DNA from: Collinsella sp.
GTDB taxonomy: Bacteria; Actinomycetota; Coriobacteriia; Coriobacteriales; Coriobacteriaceae
DNA length: 64,000 nt
Assembly (NCBI GenBank): GCA_014871665.1
Contig: WGSL01000002.1
Coordinates: 144-64,143, forward strand
Direction: 5' to 3'
In this document: positions 43,705 to 49,439 of the stretch, one piece after another
Layout: every line of letters starts with the position of its first letter
Numbering within the stretch: the stretch's first letter is position 1
The notes under the pieces: generated by a model
Databases searched by the model: none
The model's input: the letters and a program-made list of their open reading frames with translations, nothing else
Told to the model about the DNA's origin: nothing
Position numbers and translations under genes: made by a program

Positions 43705-43743
43705 GACAAAAAACAGGCCGCAGCCCATCGCTGCGGCCTGTTT
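43705..43743 (-). terminator. Rho-independent terminator of the NRMT operon
   Basis: On the minus strand AAACAGGCCGCAGC-gatgg-GCTGCGGCCTGTTT is followed by TTTTTGT. Confidence 0.75.
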
Positions 43744-43760: not shown

Positions 43761-45023
43761 CTAAGCGCTGTAACCCATCGCCCGCAGAACAAACATGACA
43801 ACCGTGAGCACCGTAATCACACCGATAGTCGCCCAAGTGAGCACATTCCACACGCGGCCGTTGCGGTTGGCACCCATGATGTGACGGTCGGCGGCGATAA
43901 CCACCTGGAACACCAGAACCACGGGCAGTAGCACGCCATTGATGACCTGCGAGGTCATCATAATCTGGAACAGATCGACGCCGGGCATAAGCACCAGCAC
44001 GGCAGAGATGCCAATGATGGCCGTAATGATGCCGCGATAGACCGGGGCCTCGTCCCAGCTGCGGTCGGCACCGCGCTCCCAGCCAAATGCCTCGCAGATA
44101 GCGCTCGACGTGACGCCCGGCAGCACGCAGGCGGCCAAGAAGCTCGCCGCGACCAGGCCCGAGGCAAACAGCACCGTGGACCACTGACCCGCAATAGGCT
44201 CCAACGCGCGGGCAGCATCGGCGGCATCGCTAATCTGAATACCCGCCGGGAACAACACCGTACCGGTCGTGATGATAATAAAGCCGGCAATGATATCGGC
44301 GGCAAGCGAGCCGCTCACAGTATCGATGCGCTGCAGCACGATATCGTCCTCGCCCGCGTTCTTATCGACCACGTTGTTCTGCGCCAAGAAAATCATCCAC
44401 GGCGCGATGGTGGTACCGATCGTTGCGACCACGAGCGACACGTAGCTGGGGTCATTTTGAATGTTAGGCACGACCAGGTCGACCGCGACCTCACCCCAGT
44501 TGGGGCCAGCCATGAACGCGGCGACAATATAGGTCACGAACACGCAGCTCACCAGCAGCAGAATCTTCTCGATGCGCTGGAAACTACCCGACATGGTAAG
44601 CATCCACACCAGCAGCGCCACCAACGGCACCGAGATGCTCGCCGGCACGCCAAAGAGGGCAAGGCCGCTGGCAATACCCGCAAACTCCGAAATGGTCACG
44701 GCTGTGTTGGCGATCAACAGCGCCGCCATAGCAAGTACACTCTTGCGCACGCCAAAGCGCTCGCGAATGAGCGATGCCAGGCCCTTGCCCGTGACGCAGC
44801 CGCAGCGTGCCGCGGTCTCCTGCGTCACGATGAGCAGCACAGTCATGACGGGAAGCATCCAGAGCATCTTGTAGCCATAGCTGGCGCCCGCGCTGGAATA
44901 CGTTGCAATGCCGCCGGCGTCATTGCCCGAAAGCGCCGCCAGCAGACCGGGACCCATAGCGCCAAAGATGGCCGCGATGGTCAACTTTTGCTTGGTGCCC
45001 GACTTTTGCTTGGTATTTTGCAC
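43761..45023 (-). CDS. NRAMP-related transporter with NRMT (Mg2+) type site signature
   Basis: It has an SLC11 fold. TM1 reads SGNDAGGIATYSSAGASYGYKMLW (DAGG in place of DPGN) and TM6 reads GTTIAPWMIFLAQ (no Met-Pro-His). The start is placed at GTG 45023, 8 nt after the upstream stop. Confidence 0.8.
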   Translation of the reverse strand: MQNTKQKSGTKQKLTIAAIFGAMGPGLLAALSGNDAGGIATYSSAGASYGYKMLWMLPVMTVLLIVTQETAARCGCVTGKGLASLIRERFGVRKSVLAMAALLIANTAVTISEFAGIASGLALFGVPASISVPLVALLVWMLTMSGSFQRIEKILLLVSCVFVTYIVAAFMAGPNWGEVAVDLVVPNIQNDPSYVSLVVATIGTTIAPWMIFLAQNNVVDKNAGEDDIVLQRIDTVSGSLAADIIAGFIIITTGTVLFPAGIQISDAADAARALEPIAGQWSTVLFASGLVAASFLAACVLPGVTSSAICEAFGWERGADRSWDEAPVYRGIITAIIGISAVLVLMPGVDLFQIMMTSQVINGVLLPVVLVFQVVIAADRHIMGANRNGRVWNVLTWATIGVITVLTVVMFVLRAMGYSA

Positions 45024-45031
45024 GCGACCAC

Positions 45032-46876
45032 CTAACCCATGACCGACATGGTGAGCAGCACCGCAGCGGCGCAGTACGCTACGCACGAGATCATGACGGC
45101 AATAACGTTCATGGCGGTGCCCGACGTGTTAAGGTCATGCTCGTCACGCCAGAACAGCACCATCAGGTAAATCACGGCGCTCATGTTGCCAACCAGGCAA
45201 ATGATGGCAGCGATATTAAAGCAGCCGGTAAAGAGCTGCTCCTCAAACATGGGCGCATCGGGGAACGCGGCGGTGCGCACCAGCTGGGCGCACAGGTAGG
45301 TCACGAGTGACAGAATCAGGCCCATGCCCGTGCTCTGGAAGAAGAACCCCAGATACGGCTTGGGCTCGTCGTCGTGACCGTCATACTCCAGGAAGTAGTT
45401 CTTGACGAACGACACCATGCGCGAGGCCGCCAGCAGCACGAGTGGCATGGCGCACATGGGGAACACCACCAGATGCGCGGAGCCGAGCGCCGTCCCCAGC
45501 ACCGTTGCCATGATGCACGAGGCAATGCCCCACACGACAACCCAGTACTGGCGATGCACAAACCAGCTGAGCACGTTCGTCGAGTCGTCCGACGCGCTAT
45601 CGCCCGAGCCGACACCGGCGATCTGCAGGTCCTCCTGATGCTCCTCGGCGATAACGTCCATGGCGTCGTCGAAGGTCACGATACCCAGGATATGACGGTT
45701 CTCGTCGCAGACAGGGATGGCAACCAGGTCGTACTTGGTCATCTCGTCCGTCACGTCTTCCTGGTCCTCGTCGGGCGACACATAGACCAGGTCGCGATAG
45801 GCCAGCTGACCCAGCGTGGCGTCGCGGTCGGCTACGATCAGCGTGCGCAGCGAAAGCACGCCGGTCAGCATGCCGCTCGGATCCTCGGTATAGACGTAGT
45901 AGACGCTCTCGAAGTCCTCGTCGAGCTCGCGAATCGCCTCAATGGCGTCACCGACCGTTGCCGTGGCGGGCAAGGAGACAAACTCTGAGGTCATGATGCG
46001 GCCGGCGGTGTTGTCCTCATACCCCAGTAGGTTACGAATCGCCTTCTCCTCCTTGACGCCCATCAGGCGCAGGAGCTTCTCGGCCTTCTCGTAATCGAGC
46101 TCGTCGATCAGGTCGGCTGCATCGTCCGGGTCCATCATGGCCAGCATTGACGATGCGTCCGTGTCGGACAGGCCCTCGAGCATCTCGGTCATAAGCTCGT
46201 CGTCATCGAACTCCGAGATGGCCTCGGCGGCCTGGGCAGTATCGAGCTGCGCAAACACCTGCGCACGTAGGCGCGGGTCGAGCTGCTCGATAATGTCGGC
46301 GATGTCGGCAGGGTGCAGCTCGCCGAGCGTCTTGTGCGACACCGAGAGTTGAATGTTCTTGGTCGAGCGGTCGAGCAGGTCCATGTAGGACCAAGCGATG
46401 ATGTCCTCACTGAGCGGCTTGCCCAGGTGCTTCATAAAGCCTTCGACGATATGCTCGAGCGCGGGGCTGATGGCGCGTAGCAGACCGCGAGCACCAACCT
46501 CGGCGCCCAGCAGGCGCAGCTGGTTTTCGCCCGACATGGAAAACTTGATGTCGTTTACGCGCACGACCTTCATGCCCTGCGTGTCGACAATCTGCTTGTT
46601 GAGCACGTCACGGGCAAGCAAGAGTTCGGTCGGCTGCAGGTACGAAAAGCGAATTTCGGTAGCCGACGTCTTAAGGTGTACGCCCGTCTCGTCGATACGG
46701 TCGACCCATTTGCGCCAGCTGATCATAAACGGCGTCTTGCCGGGTCCGCGGAACGCGAGCGACGTCACGTGCGGAAAAACTTCGCCGGTAGCAATACCAA
46801 AATCGTTGACCACGCCGAGCTTTTCGCCATCGACGTCCAAGACCGGCAATTTGAGCATCTCACTCAGATAATTCAA
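45032..46876 (-). CDS. PRC-barrel + MgtE_N + CBS-pair protein with a non-MgtE membrane domain
   Basis: 614 aa. The N-terminal PRC barrel (PVLDVDGEKLGVVNDF) is followed by an MgtE_N-like acidic helical region (LHPADIADIIEQLD...), two CBS domains and about 5 TM helices lacking the MgtE GNxGxQ / D motifs. The start is TTG 46876 (GGGGAG upstream) or ATG 46858. Confidence 0.8.
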   Translation of the reverse strand: MNYLSEMLKLPVLDVDGEKLGVVNDFGIATGEVFPHVTSLAFRGPGKTPFMISWRKWVDRIDETGVHLKTSATEIRFSYLQPTELLLARDVLNKQIVDTQGMKVVRVNDIKFSMSGENQLRLLGAEVGARGLLRAISPALEHIVEGFMKHLGKPLSEDIIAWSYMDLLDRSTKNIQLSVSHKTLGELHPADIADIIEQLDPRLRAQVFAQLDTAQAAEAISEFDDDELMTEMLEGLSDTDASSMLAMMDPDDAADLIDELDYEKAEKLLRLMGVKEEKAIRNLLGYEDNTAGRIMTSEFVSLPATATVGDAIEAIRELDEDFESVYYVYTEDPSGMLTGVLSLRTLIVADRDATLGQLAYRDLVYVSPDEDQEDVTDEMTKYDLVAIPVCDENRHILGIVTFDDAMDVIAEEHQEDLQIAGVGSGDSASDDSTNVLSWFVHRQYWVVVWGIASCIMATVLGTALGSAHLVVFPMCAMPLVLLAASRMVSFVKNYFLEYDGHDDEPKPYLGFFFQSTGMGLILSLVTYLCAQLVRTAAFPDAPMFEEQLFTGCFNIAAIICLVGNMSAVIYLMVLFWRDEHDLNTSGTAMNVIAVMISCVAYCAAAVLLTMSVMG

Positions 46877-47165
46877 TGGTGCTCCCCATCATTATTCCTC
46901 CGGACGCGGCCGCGCGTGCGGCGTCCGGGGGCTTCTGGATATGTATACGCATGCGCGGGCGGCACGCCGCTCGACGCTTACACCCCGTGCATGCGCAAAA
47001 AGCACCTGCATGGGGTCATCGACTGTATGGTCGAGGTTTGGATTTCACCTGTAACCTTTCTCTTGACCCTCATTAACCGCAGTAACTATAGCATCAGCAT
47101 CGCCCTGCGGCATCGAATTTATGCGCTGCACATTGCAGGCATACCAAACGCTGACGCATCCGTGA
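46877..47165 (-). promoter_or_regulatory. Long 5' leader with M-box-like sequence blocks (candidate Mg2+ riboswitch)
   Basis: The minus strand has UAAUGAGGGUCAAGAGAAA, ACAGGUGAAAU and CCAUACAGU in the same order as the B. subtilis M-box blocks UAAUGGGUCAACAGAAA, AAGGUGAUUU and CCAUACAGUGC. The 5' M-box blocks are poorly matched. Confidence 0.3.
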
Positions 47166-48683: not shown

Positions 48684-49439
48684 CTATTTTGTAGCTTTTG
48701 ACGAGCCTCCGCTCGCCTTTTGGTATTCGTCCTTAAAGGCCTTGAACATGCCGCGCGTCTTGCCGAGCTGCTTGCCCAGTGCGCGACTGCCCTTGTCCAC
48801 GGCAACCGACCCCTTGTCGTCGAGCACCTTGGCGCCCTTTTTGACCTTGTCGCCCACCACGACGCTGGCCTCGGCGGCCTTGGCAGCCGCACCGCCCGAA
48901 TACCCGAGCGACTTGACCTCGTCCGAGACGACCATCGCGCCGTTCTCGTAGCCGCGCAGCATCGTCGGCGGCACCTGCGTGTCACCGACCAAAACACTCG
49001 AAGCAGCACCGGCGGTCACATAGAATGCCTGCACGATGCCCGAGCGTGGCTTGAACTCAACGTCCGAGCAATAGCCCACGACGTCGCCCGATTCCGTGCG
49101 CACGTCCATACCGACCCAGATGATGCAATCGTCCAGGTTGATGTCGAGGCGCTTGGCGGCGGCGGCATCGTATGTGTCCTTGACGTCATCGACCGCAATG
49201 GCGCCCTCGTAGACACCAATGGCGTCGAGCGCTACGAATCGGTCGGGGCGCTCGATCATACCCGCGATATCGGACTGGCGGACCATAAAGCCGACCACGC
49301 GCGTACCGCCCGGGGTAAAGACCGGAAAGTGAATCTTTCCGAGCTTTTTAGGGCTGCGCGGCGTGCCGTCCTTTTTGGTGCGCTTGTCCTCGGTAGGCTT
49401 GCGATAGATCTTGGCGCCGACAAAATCCCCGGCGCGCAT
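48684..49439 (-). CDS. Tandem PRC-barrel domain protein with Lys-rich tail
   Basis: 251 aa. The assignment rests on the overall PRC-barrel repeat pattern. Confidence 0.6.
   Translation of the reverse strand: MRAGDFVGAKIYRKPTEDKRTKKDGTPRSPKKLGKIHFPVFTPGGTRVVGFMVRQSDIAGMIERPDRFVALDAIGVYEGAIAVDDVKDTYDAAAAKRLDINLDDCIIWVGMDVRTESGDVVGYCSDVEFKPRSGIVQAFYVTAGAASSVLVGDTQVPPTMLRGYENGAMVVSDEVKSLGYSGGAAAKAAEASVVVGDKVKKGAKVLDDKGSVAVDKGSRALGKQLGKTRGMFKAFKDEYQKASGGSSKATK

Follow-up and report, generated by a model that had tools for sequence, protein, structure and literature searches.

In gut Collinsella (Coriobacteriaceae), the gene of an NRAMP-related Mg2+ transporter (NRMT) is the second member of a two-gene operon on the minus strand. 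The first gene encodes a 614-residue protein, here called the partner, which retains every mutationally defined Mg2+ ligand of the cytosolic part of the Mg2+ channel MgtE, and lacks the ligand of its pore. Because of this combination, the reading that fits best is one of two raised in an earlier note on the same DNA, namely that the partner is a Mg2+-sensing regulatory subunit of the NRMT. In our version the subunit is membrane-anchored and descended from MgtE. We consider the chances to be about even that this is so and that, jointly, the two genes represent a Mg2+-uptake operon of Collinsella.

The operon was analyzed within a window of 64,000 nucleotides, by which the whole stretch of DNA is meant. 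The features of the locus are collected in Table 1. As the earlier note had stated, the two reading frames follow each other closely: exactly 8 nt lie between the stop codon of the partner gene and the GTG at 45023, which is the first in-frame start after that stop. The gap is kept in 40/40 Collinsella loci. The Shine-Dalgarno sequence of the NRMT gene is embedded in the end of the partner gene and, together with the 8-nt gap, suggests that translation of the two genes is coupled. A longer NRMT reading frame, starting at 45086, is unlikely to be real because the alignment with the NRMT of Eggerthella lenta (EleNRMT) begins at KQKLT, immediately after the GTG. An intrinsic terminator begins 17 nt past the NRMT stop codon.

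Table 1. Features of the partner-NRMT operon and its leader (positions are those of the window).
Feature	Position	Strand	Basis or remark
Possible extended -10 promoter element (TGCTATAGT)	47085..47093	-	Read from sequence; weak
Shine-Dalgarno-like AAGAGAAAGG of uORF	47055..47064	-	Purine-rich element before uORF start
Conserved uORF MKSKPRPYSR*	47016..47048	-	GTG AAA TCC AAA CCT CGA CCA TAC AGT CGA TGA
Anti-SD strand GGTGCT	47001..47006	-	Complementary to AGCACC in the ribosome-binding site of the partner gene
Shine-Dalgarno region (GGGGAGCACC) of partner gene	46878..46887	-	Read from sequence
Partner gene, 614 aa	45032..46876	-	TTG start, TAG stop; stop codon included
Tandem PRC-barrel region, residues 2-166	46379..46873	-	Pfam PRC and AF2 model
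MgtE-type cytosolic Mg2+-sensor module	45614..46318	-	Pfam and PDB MgtE matches
Five-helix membrane domain, residues 444-613	45038..45547	-	AF2 model, pLDDT 80-95
Shine-Dalgarno AGGTGG of NRMT gene	45028..45033	-	Overlaps partner stop codon; read from sequence
NRMT-type NRAMP gene, 420 aa	43761..45023	-	GTG start; stop codon included
Intrinsic terminator ending the two-gene operon	43711..43743	-	14-bp GC-rich stem, then T run

The carrier and its pairing with the partner

The product of the NRMT gene matches the Pfam Nramp family (PF01566) with an E-value of 2.9e-88, the whole profile being covered. Its best match in the Protein Data Bank is EleNRMT (PDB 7qia), to which it is 57% identical over 407 aa (E 1e-148). 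The next chain, 10ky, carries no name beyond 'Divalent metal cation transporter'; it matches at 1e-29, and the MntH chains match at 1e-23 or weaker. The score of 152 bits against the NCBIfam profile of MntH is far below the cut-off of 430.

The earlier note had placed the protein in the NRMT clade on account of two substitutions, DAGG and GTTIAPW. Both are present in the translation. The DAGG of helix 1 (LSGNDAGGIATYS) is part of an NDAGG that aligns with the NDAGG of EleNRMT (Asp55, Gly58). The GTTIAPW of helix 6 aligns with Thr224 and Trp229, with Thr taking the place of Ala, Met lost and Trp taking the place of His. The segments TSQVING and EFAGIASG also align with EleNRMT residue for residue. 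The protein has equivalents of D55, G58, E133 (helix 3), T224, W229 and Q379 (helix 10), which are all of the EleNRMT binding-site residues compared; their roles are those given by Ramanadane et al. 2022 (PMC8806188). The alignment therefore supports its assignment to the NRMT clade of SLC11/NRAMP, where it is an ortholog-level relative of EleNRMT and CabNRMT, sharing DAGG, the Thr and Trp of helix 6 and the Gln of helix 10. By its close homology to EleNRMT, the structures of which are available (PDB 7QIA, 7QIC, 7QJI and 7QJJ; Ramanadane et al. 2022, PMC8806188), the Collinsella carrier is predicted to import Mg2+ (and Mn2+) without proton coupling.

The conserved co-occurrence of the two genes, on which the earlier note had made its proposal depend, was found in all sets of loci compared. 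An Nramp gene is located directly downstream of 5/5 diverse partner homologs. Among 80 loci from Atopobiaceae and Collinsella in GTDB, all those with sufficient upstream DNA have the three-part partner immediately before the NRMT gene, on the same strand. In 80 metagenome loci of the EleNRMT type the partner is directly upstream in nearly all that have enough upstream DNA, locus L164 apart. There, the best partner match is about 2.5 kb away from the NRMT gene and on the other strand; a scan for the leader reading frame described below suggests that L164 may have a second, same-strand copy of the partner upstream of its NRMT. The E. lenta gene, too, is preceded by a PRC-MgtE_N-CBS partner, at a distance of 4 nt. 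The pairing thus spans three families of Coriobacteriia, and the genes that flank the pair vary from lineage to lineage.

A shared operon might reflect co-expression only. The CBS/MgtE_N sensor of the partner would then signal Mg2+ or adenine-nucleotide status to a different target, and the partner would not be physically connected with the NRMT. Many proteins have CBS pairs that bind adenine nucleotides, and MgtE is among them (PDB 5x9h and 5x9g are titled ATP complexes). Furthermore, the one co-expression test was negative: when the MgtE-like gene of A. capsulatum and its NrmT were co-expressed in B. subtilis, the Mg2+ rescue was not improved (Shin et al., PMC4072509). This explanation is nevertheless unlikely. 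The two genes have remained adjacent in three families with differing flanking genes, separated by 4-8 nt in Collinsella and E. lenta, and the partner and the NRMT are similarly conserved. Moreover, the partners have two unrelated membrane anchors, of either five helices or one, and this points to a target that resides in the membrane.

The putative sensor and the membrane domain of the partner

The partner consists of tandem PRC barrels, an MgtE_N domain, a CBS pair, an acidic plug helix and five TM helices, in this order. The earlier note had described nearly the same architecture, but with a single PRC barrel, and in this respect it has to be amended as there are probably two. Pfam locates PRC at residues 2-61 (E 1e-7), and residues from about 86 to 166, which give a sub-threshold PRC match (E 0.038), are modeled by AF2 as a beta domain. 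The E. lenta homolog also has two PRC stretches.

The sensor module is composed of the N domain (Pfam MgtE_N, residues 187-289), the CBS pair (two Pfam CBS domains, residues 295-410) and the plug helix EEHQEDLQIAG (residues 411-421). Cytosolic domains of MgtE in the Protein Data Bank match the partner with E-values of 3e-39 to 1e-26. Of the mutationally defined cytosolic Mg2+ ligands of Thermus thermophilus MgtE, which constitute sites Mg2-Mg7 (listed in PMC5882242), 8/8 are identical in the partner: E59, D91, D95, D226, D247, D250, E258 and D259 of MgtE correspond to E218, D251, D255, D383, D404, D407, E415 and D416, respectively. The plug-helix motif EEHxEDL is invariant in 35 members of the partner family. 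The plug-helix ligands E255, E258 and D259 are poorly conserved in the Eggerthellaceae partners, which may mean that lineages do not all sense Mg2+ by the same mechanism.

No part of the partner is as well conserved as the PRC region, which is 62-70% identical to that of the Atopobiaceae and Eggerthellaceae homologs. Across the compared loci the identity is 49-64% for the MgtE_N-CBS part and 61-68% for the NRMT (57% to EleNRMT). The TM part evolves fastest, with 25-33% identity between families. We know of no role of PRC barrels in Mg2+ sensing, and a simple MgtE-like gating model leaves their strong conservation unexplained.

Elsewhere, PRC barrels are protein-protein interaction modules, for example in RimM and in the H subunit of the reaction center. 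Such modules, the best conserved in the partner, would suit a chaperone of Mg2+ (or Mn2+) that accepts the ion where it leaves the NRMT on the cytoplasmic side and delivers it to a client, or an assembly or localization factor that tethers the carrier to another machine via its PRC barrels, in either case without gating. A chaperone was named as an alternative by Shin et al. (PMC4072509). The many acidic Mg2+ sites kept in the partner agree with this role, as does the finding that CabNRMT and EleNRMT transport in vitro without the partner, which is therefore not required for activity. However, the retained residues are the ones responsible for the closing movement of MgtE, and no client is suggested by the gene neighborhood, in which the lineages have only the pair itself in common. 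A Mg2+ chaperone is also hard to justify because Mg2+ is present in the cell at millimolar concentration, and is mostly free or nucleotide-bound. Thus a role in chaperoning or assembly appears quite unlikely.

The helices of the membrane domain span residues 444-464, 467-497, 508-537, 544-579 and 586-613 in the AF2 model. The earlier note had called this domain novel, a description that an alignment with MgtE in a profile search would have contradicted; at the level of sequence there is no such alignment. The TM family of MgtE, PF01769, has no match in the partner, even at E<=10 with the TM part alone, and in the precomputed annotation it occurs in 0/120 partner homologs. The TIGR00400 (mgtE) score of the partner, 219.4 bits, is below the cut-off of 232.75. 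An HMM of the domain found no MgtE in the Protein Data Bank up to E=10, and hhalign gave a probability of 0.2% for its alignment with MgtE. As to the fold, however, the description is not supported. With the TM-only AF2 model as the query, the top seven Foldseek matches in the Protein Data Bank were all MgtE with a probability of 1.00, whereas the next match had a probability of 0.10. The MgtE matches are marginal, with TM-scores of 0.50-0.59, an rmsd of about 6 Å and E-values of 3e-3 to 5e-2, for a query that is itself a predicted model. The place of the domain in the architecture, the number of its helices and their topology are those of the TM domain of MgtE. From the model, it is best interpreted as a degenerate MgtE TM domain devoid of the pore Asp and of GGNxGNQ, and not as a new fold.

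The absence of the MgtE pore motifs, also claimed earlier, was borne out. There is no acidic residue in TM5, where Asp432 of MgtE contributes to site Mg1, in 34/35 members of the partner family, and the one remaining member has its acidic residue at the last TM5 position. The GGNxGNQ motif of TM2 is missing from the partner, which has AASRMVSF where MgtE has GGNTGNQS. Within the TM region, conservation is 0.66 and 0.56 in the cytoplasmic loops, 0.39-0.48 in the helices and 0.19-0.26 in the outer loops, and the helices possess almost no conserved polar positions. An acidic pair, ADD, is found at the cytoplasmic end of TM2 in many family members; Collinsella has ASR. In the Eggerthellaceae, a single tail-anchor helix replaces the five helices, while the rest of the partner and its linkage to the NRMT are kept. 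The cytosolic part is therefore the functional core.

These properties bear on the second possibility raised in the earlier note, that of an additional transport domain. The partner would then itself be a transporter or channel, in which the five helices form a second pathway for Mg2+ or another ion with its own MgtE-type gate, and would be merely co-expressed with the NRMT. It is annotated publicly as 'magnesium transporter', and has the full domain order of MgtE as well as a predicted MgtE-like TM fold. Conservation extends to the plug helix and to those cytoplasmic loops by which MgtE couples its sensor to its pore, and many family members have the ADD pair. Transport by the partner is very unlikely, however, given that Asp432 and GGNxGNQ are lost, that the helices are its least conserved part, that Collinsella itself does not have the ADD pair, and that the Eggerthellaceae dispense with the entire domain.

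The leader of the operon

A conserved mini-gene upstream of the partner seems to control the operon. A homologous uORF of 8-11 codons with the core [KR]-P-[HY]-S precedes the partner gene in 132/138 loci from three families, compared to 55/3000 control segments. The core is located near the stop codon, and one Pro alone is invariant. Changes in the uORF are mostly synonymous, the conservation being that of the peptide, and the starts ATG, GTG and TTG, like the stops TGA, TAG and TAA, interchange between loci. GAAAGG or GAAGGG is found 6-9 nt before the start in 29/29 distinct uORF variants.

In the minimum free energy folds of nearly all leaders, the stretch that follows the uORF stop codon pairs with the Shine-Dalgarno sequence of the partner gene. 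The two strands co-vary between lineages (GTGCTCC/GGAGCAC, GCGCTCC/GGAGCGC, UCCCUUACG/CGUAAGGGA and GAUCUCCUU/AAGGAGAUC), and AAGGAGCAC is conserved in the Shine-Dalgarno region in an alignment of 27 leaders. The mean z of the duplex is -1.77 relative to shuffled sequences, the signal in the window itself being weak (z about -0.7 to -1.3). Covariation for a hairpin around the uORF is weak. Atopobiaceae leaders have GTGTACAAT at a distance upstream comparable to that of the possible -10 element of Collinsella. The assignment of this element is weak because a consensus scan gave no full sigma-70 site.

Clostridial NRMT genes are controlled by an M-box riboswitch. In contrast, the M-box (RF00380) has no Rfam match at E<=1 between 40 and 52 kb of the window, or at E<=10 when the leader alone is searched, and none was found at the Rfam gathering threshold in 10 related loci.

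Relation to known systems and proposed regulation

The earlier note was not aware of any characterization of such a partner. This view needs correction. In 2014, Shin et al. (PLoS Genet, PMC4072509) described a gene for an MgtE cytoplasmic domain adjacent to most NrmT genes, carried out the co-expression test mentioned above, which had no effect, and proposed feedback regulation or chaperoning for the MgtE-like fragment. The regulatory idea is therefore not new, and the feedback hypothesis is the same as that considered here. The fragments are described there as small, co-transcribed with NrmT and often under an M-box, and as homologous to the MgtE cytoplasmic domain only. The Collinsella partner, with its 614 aa, two PRC barrels and five-helix MgtE-like membrane domain, is different, and so is the E. 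lenta partner, which has 450 aa, PRC barrels and one TM helix as a tail anchor. Neither PRC nor membrane segments are mentioned in the text of Shin et al. 2014 (PMC4072509), where 'PRC' occurs 0 times. The PRC and membrane-anchor architecture of the partner is new compared to that study.

The partner resembles T. thermophilus MgtE (PDB 2YVX, 2ZY9, 4U9L and 5X9H) in having an N domain, CBS pair, plug helix and five TM helices in the same order and identical Mg2-Mg7 ligands. Furthermore, MgtE structures are the only structural neighbors, albeit marginal ones, of its TM model. The partner differs from MgtE in the two extra N-terminal PRC barrels, in its constant pairing with an NRMT, in a score below the TIGR00400 cut-off, and in a TM sequence for which neither the HMM nor the profile-profile test shows a relationship, which falls outside PF01769 and has neither Asp432 (Mg1) nor GGNxGNQ.

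In the proposed mechanism, the partner would be a descendant of MgtE that has kept the cytosolic Mg2+ apparatus, lost the ion pore and gained two N-terminal PRC barrels, and would act as a membrane-anchored, probably dimeric regulatory subunit. At high cytosolic Mg2+ the N/CBS/plug module would be locked in a compact state, as in MgtE. We infer that the partner touches the NRMT and acts on it in the inhibitory direction: the compact state would be relayed to the carrier by the PRC barrels, by the conserved loops on the cytoplasmic side of the TM domain or by both, and import would be shut. The block would be released when Mg2+ falls. The negative co-expression test and the transport by CabNRMT and EleNRMT without a partner weigh against such a mechanism. 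The five-helix domain would mainly hold the sensor at the membrane beside the carrier. Expression would probably be set by the translated leader ORF, translation of which would expose the sequestered ribosome-binding site of the partner gene. The leader ORF would thus replace the M-box riboswitch of the clostridial NrmT genes.

In Salmonella, mgtA and mgtB are preceded by the leader ORFs mgtL and mgtQ, respectively (Choi et al. 2021, PMC8092293). Like these, the Collinsella uORF is a very short reading frame in the putative leader of a Mg2+ transporter operon, beside RNA with the capacity to mask the ribosome-binding site that follows. Unlike them, it belongs to a Gram-positive, actinobacterial host, and it has no sequence relationship to either.

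A more far-reaching proposal, which we regard as speculative and rather doubtful, is that the NRMTs of Coriobacteriia are complexed in vivo with an obligate MgtE paralog, dead as a channel, that gates them by cytosolic Mg2+, in an operon switched on by an undescribed leader peptide ([KR]-P-[HY]-S) that unmasks the ribosome-binding site of the partner. If this were true, the sensor of a channel would have been recruited to regulate, as a subunit, a carrier of the unrelated LeuT fold, and the published properties of isolated EleNRMT would be those of an incomplete machine. The leader peptide would be a Gram-positive counterpart of the mgtL/mgtQ systems of Salmonella.

The carrier and its operon

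Four classes of bacterial Mg2+ importers are known, of which the NRMTs are the fourth. Their structural model is EleNRMT, the Eggerthella lenta relative with a solved structure (PDB 7qia). The 420-aa carrier encoded in the window matches Pfam Nramp over the full model and is 57% identical to EleNRMT over 407 residues (E 1e-148). The next PDB chain, 10ky ('Divalent metal cation transporter'), follows at E 1e-29, and the Mn2+ transporters (MntH) at E 1e-23 or weaker. The key residues of EleNRMT are Asp55, Gly58 (replacing Asn), Glu133, Thr224 (replacing Ala), Trp (replacing His) and Gln379 (Ramanadane et al., PMC8806188). All of them are kept in register in the Collinsella carrier. The motif observation in the earlier note and its assignment of the protein to the NRMT clade are correct.

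The carrier gene and the gene of the 614-aa partner protein constitute a compact operon of two minus-strand ORFs. Their order and the short gap between them, as first described, were confirmed (see table). A longer NRAMP ORF, which starts at GTG 45086 and overlaps the partner gene, was discarded in favor of the start at 45023. The upstream neighbor is a polysaccharide deacetylase-like gene on the same strand as the operon and the downstream neighbor is a convergent acyltransferase gene, both named from Pfam labels via the syntenic locus L001. Two genes upstream of the operon, a 251-aa ORF (48684..49439, minus strand) gives a weak, sub-threshold PRC-barrel match (E 0.0097); Pfam finds nothing in its syntenic counterpart in L001.

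The G+C content is about 61% across the window, and the closest relatives of both the partner and the NRMT are Collinsella proteins. A cluster of 20,892 sequences matches the partner with 98% identity. The partner segments are 96-100% identical in 40 loci of the genome scan, which are mostly labeled Collinsella or C. aerofaciens, with a few carrying another genus label or none.

Features of the partner-NRMT operon and of an E. lenta-type relative
Feature	Position	Strand	Remarks
Leader of partner gene	about 46877..47078	-	
Putative upstream ORF (uORF)	47048..47016	-	GTG AAA TCC AAA CCT CGA CCA TAC AGT CGA TGA = MKSKPRPYSR
Partner ORF, 614 aa	46876..45032	-	stop is TAG
AGGTGG Shine-Dalgarno (SD) of NRMT	overlaps partner stop	-	
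NRMT ORF, 420 aa	45023 (start GTG)..43761	-	GTG 8 nt past partner TAG
Hairpin	3' of NRAMP stop	-	14-bp GC-rich stem and T run
E. lenta-type partner, 450 aa	L087:2554-3906		metagenome contig; stop 3906, NRMT ATG 3911 (4 nt)

Domain structure of the partner

Pfam recognizes a PRC domain (residues 2-61), MgtE_N (187-289) and two CBS domains in the partner. The N terminus is most likely a tandem PRC barrel, because residues 86-166 form a second β domain in the AF2 model and give a sub-threshold PRC match, and the E. lenta ortholog has two PRC stretches. The N-CBS part aligns with the solved MgtE cytosolic domains at E values of 3e-39 to 1e-26. Mutagenesis of Thermus thermophilus MgtE assigned the Mg2+ ligands E258 (Mg2), D259 (Mg3), D91/D247 (Mg4), D226/D250 (Mg5), D95 (Mg6) and E59 (Mg7) (Maruyama et al. 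2018, PMC5882242). All eight are identical in the partner, being E415, D416, D251/D404, D383/D407, D255 and E218 in the same site order. In 33 aligned five-helix members, the positions of D91, D247, E258 and D259 are invariant and that of D250 is always acidic. The other three are less constant: the D95 position is Glu in 24 members and Ala in 3, the D226 position is Asn in 26, and the E59 position has Gly or Leu in 11. Within the C-terminal half of the partner, conservation peaks in the plug helix, EEHxEDLxIAG.

The membrane domain had been called novel, and profile searches gave no alignment of it to MgtE. PF01769, the MgtE transmembrane (TM) family, has no match in the partner even at E<=10, and the TIGR00400 score is under the cut-off. 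A phmmer search of the 190-aa TM domain against 1.84 billion representatives returned 53 clusters only, with no bona fide MgtE among them. An HMM of ten diverse TM-domain members, run against the PDB, gave no MgtE at E values up to 10, and hhalign of a 35-sequence TM profile with a 19-sequence MgtE TM profile gave a probability of 0.2%. Diverse sequences were chosen with the help of a homolog search that used the TM alignment and, owing to its word index, yielded only 21 proteins. A phmmer alignment of the partner with 2yvx seems to reach into TM1-TM3, but this extension is non-significant when taken alone, because phmmer, HMM, Pfam and hhalign show no MgtE link for the TM domain.

The predicted structures, however, suggest a resemblance to MgtE. 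The best PDB matches of the full-length model are full-length MgtE structures, with about 440 aligned columns. The TM-only model (pLDDT 84, pTM 0.77) finds MgtE in all of its top seven matches, among them 4U9L and 4U9N, which are crystal structures of the TM domain alone (probability 1.00, TM-scores 0.50-0.59; eighth match 0.10). Furthermore, the partner and MgtE have in common a TM domain that follows the plug helix, five helices and an implied N-in/C-out topology. The simplest reading, and the most likely one, is that the membrane part is an MgtE TM domain that has strongly degenerated.

The TM domain of the partner is without the MgtE pore, as the lack of pore motifs in the earlier note had indicated. 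The position of the MgtE GGNTGNQS motif is occupied by AASRMVSF. Acidic residues are missing from TM5 in 34 of the 35 members, the one exception having such a residue at the last TM5 position, and therefore the equivalent of Asp432 is absent. The conserved positions of the TM region sit in two cytoplasmic loops, LEYDxxDDE after TM2 and RxRDE..TSG before TM5. The mean top-residue frequency is 0.66 and 0.56 in these loops, whereas the helices reach 0.39-0.48 and the outer loops 0.19-0.26.

In public databases the partner is entered as 'magnesium transporter' or 'Mg2+ transporter MgtE'. The protein has no MgtE pore domain signature and scores under the TIGR00400 cut-off, and the label is probably a wrong, systematic misannotation. 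In three metagenome gene calls, P0013 (967 aa), P0025 (993 aa) and P0029 (785 aa), the partner is fused to Nramp, MMPL or MatE domains. The partner portion of these is 98-99% identical to the window protein, and the fusions are most likely artifacts of frameshifts or of chimeric assembly.

Conservation and proposed role of the partner-NRMT pair

In five out of five partner homologs from a diverse set (28-49% TM identity), an Nramp gene lies directly downstream, although the flanking genes differ. When one genome per GTDB species was scanned with an NRMT alignment, the result was 80 loci from Collinsella and the Atopobiaceae (Olsenella, Atopobium, Lancefieldella and Parafannyhessea). The PRC, N-CBS and TM segments are directly upstream and on the same strand wherever the upstream DNA suffices. 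Identity to the window protein is 64-70% in the PRC region, 57-64% in N-CBS and 61-68% in the NRMT, but only 25-33% in the TM domain.

Metagenomes scanned with EleNRMT gave 80 Eggerthellaceae-type loci, in which the partner is again directly upstream of the NRMT. The pairing of the two genes is thus kept across three Coriobacteriia families where the upstream sequence can be judged. A possible exception is L164, where the best partner match is on the opposite strand and only the scan for the leader ORF described below hints at a copy on the same strand. This contig (1..9113) apparently has two divergently oriented partner genes, one adjoining a 71%-identical NRMT, which suggests that partner-NRMT operons are duplicated in some genomes. 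Several Eggerthellaceae loci (L087:2215-2288, L108 and L165, in the last on the opposite strand) and one Lancefieldella locus (L038) have a tRNA gene that precedes the operon by a few hundred bases.

The Eggerthellaceae partner has about 450 residues and consists of tandem PRC, N and CBS domains and, at the C terminus, one hydrophobic helix that carries a conserved LYTLVLLQ motif. The family thus retains a membrane anchor in two forms, five helices or one, while the cytosolic part and the linkage to the NRMT are constant, which argues for a TM domain that serves as an anchor or contact surface and not as a pore. The earlier alternative, that the partner contains a second transport domain, is unlikely given the absent pore residues and the two different anchors.

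The best explanation for the partner is that it is a regulatory subunit of the NRMT, although this hypothesis had already been published. Most NrmT genes adjoin a gene homologous to the MgtE cytoplasmic domain, for which feedback regulation or a chaperone role was proposed (Shin et al. 2014, PMC4072509). In the same study, co-expression of the MgtE-like gene with the Acidobacterium capsulatum carrier did not improve rescue, and clostridial carriers functioned without such a gene. The text of the EleNRMT structural paper mentions no partner and refers to 'MgtE' solely as another transporter (PMC8806188); a literature search for later papers on the partner found none. New relative to the searchable literature are the PRC barrels and membrane anchors, the degenerate MgtE TM domain, and the finding that the E. 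lenta locus also has the partner.

The operon leader and Mg2+ homeostasis

Neither an M-box nor any other Rfam family was found in the leader of the window, even at the laxest filters, or in 10 related loci at the gathering threshold. The leader alignment contains a conserved block, which from its sequence is best explained as a translated ORF, the uORF. It has 8-11 codons, a [KR]-P-[HY]-S core and its own SD, and no Rfam match. The Atopobiaceae version is ATG AAA CCT CGA CCT CAC AGT CGA TGA (MKPRPHSR), and that of the Eggerthellaceae is TTG AAG GTT CGA AAA (C/T)CG AAA CCT CAC AGT xxx TAG (MKVRK[PS]KPHSx). Over 29 distinct nucleotide versions, frame and length are kept and the ORF begins behind a GAAAGG-type SD; start codons alternate between ATG, GTG and TTG, and stops between TGA, TAG and TAA, and many of the differences are synonymous. 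The uORF is present in 132 of the 138 loci of the three families, compared to 1.8% of control segments; besides the window, it was noted upstream of the partner gene in L001, L007-L046 and L087-L166.

A riboswitch-like hairpin was considered for the same block. The only pairings that survive in RNAalifold are GGUC/GACC and CGAC/GUCG, the latter invariant; two pairs show one compensatory event each, and the hairpin enclosing the uORF is weakly supported. The coding reading fits the pattern of conservation better. A second, 10-codon ORF (ATGATGGGGAGC...TGA; ATGATGGGGAGCACCATTGAATTATCTGAGTGA) at about 46859..46891 on the minus strand has a GGAGGA SD and overlaps the TTG start of the partner. Its deletion in the related, 82-86%-identical locus L001 marks it as probably fortuitous.

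The strand right after the uORF stop is complementary to the partner SD, and the SD and anti-SD co-vary between lineages (mean duplex z-score -1.77), although the signal is weak in the window itself. By analogy with mgtQ/mgtB (Choi et al. 2021, PMC8092293) and mgtL/mgtA in Salmonella, ribosome occupancy of the uORF could make the ribosome-binding site of the partner accessible. The analogy to mgtL is loose. The mgtL-like 'several proline codons' do not apply to the uORF, which has a single invariant Pro because the first Pro is Ser, His or Gln in many Eggerthellaceae. As a lead of its own, the leader ORF may be new.

The E. lenta gene and every judgeable relative in three Coriobacteriia families are preceded by a conserved, MgtE-derived putative sensor protein. 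If this sensor gates the carrier, the pair would clearly exemplify the transfer of a regulatory module from a channel to an unrelated carrier, and would explain how an uncoupled Mg2+ carrier avoids overloading the cell. It would also be a directly testable system in E. lenta, because proteins, assays and structures from this organism already exist. Partner types that range from five helices through one helix to a soluble fragment are a natural experiment on the role of the membrane part, and the conserved ORF in the leader is a candidate for a new cis-regulatory element in the Mg2+ homeostasis of abundant human gut bacteria.
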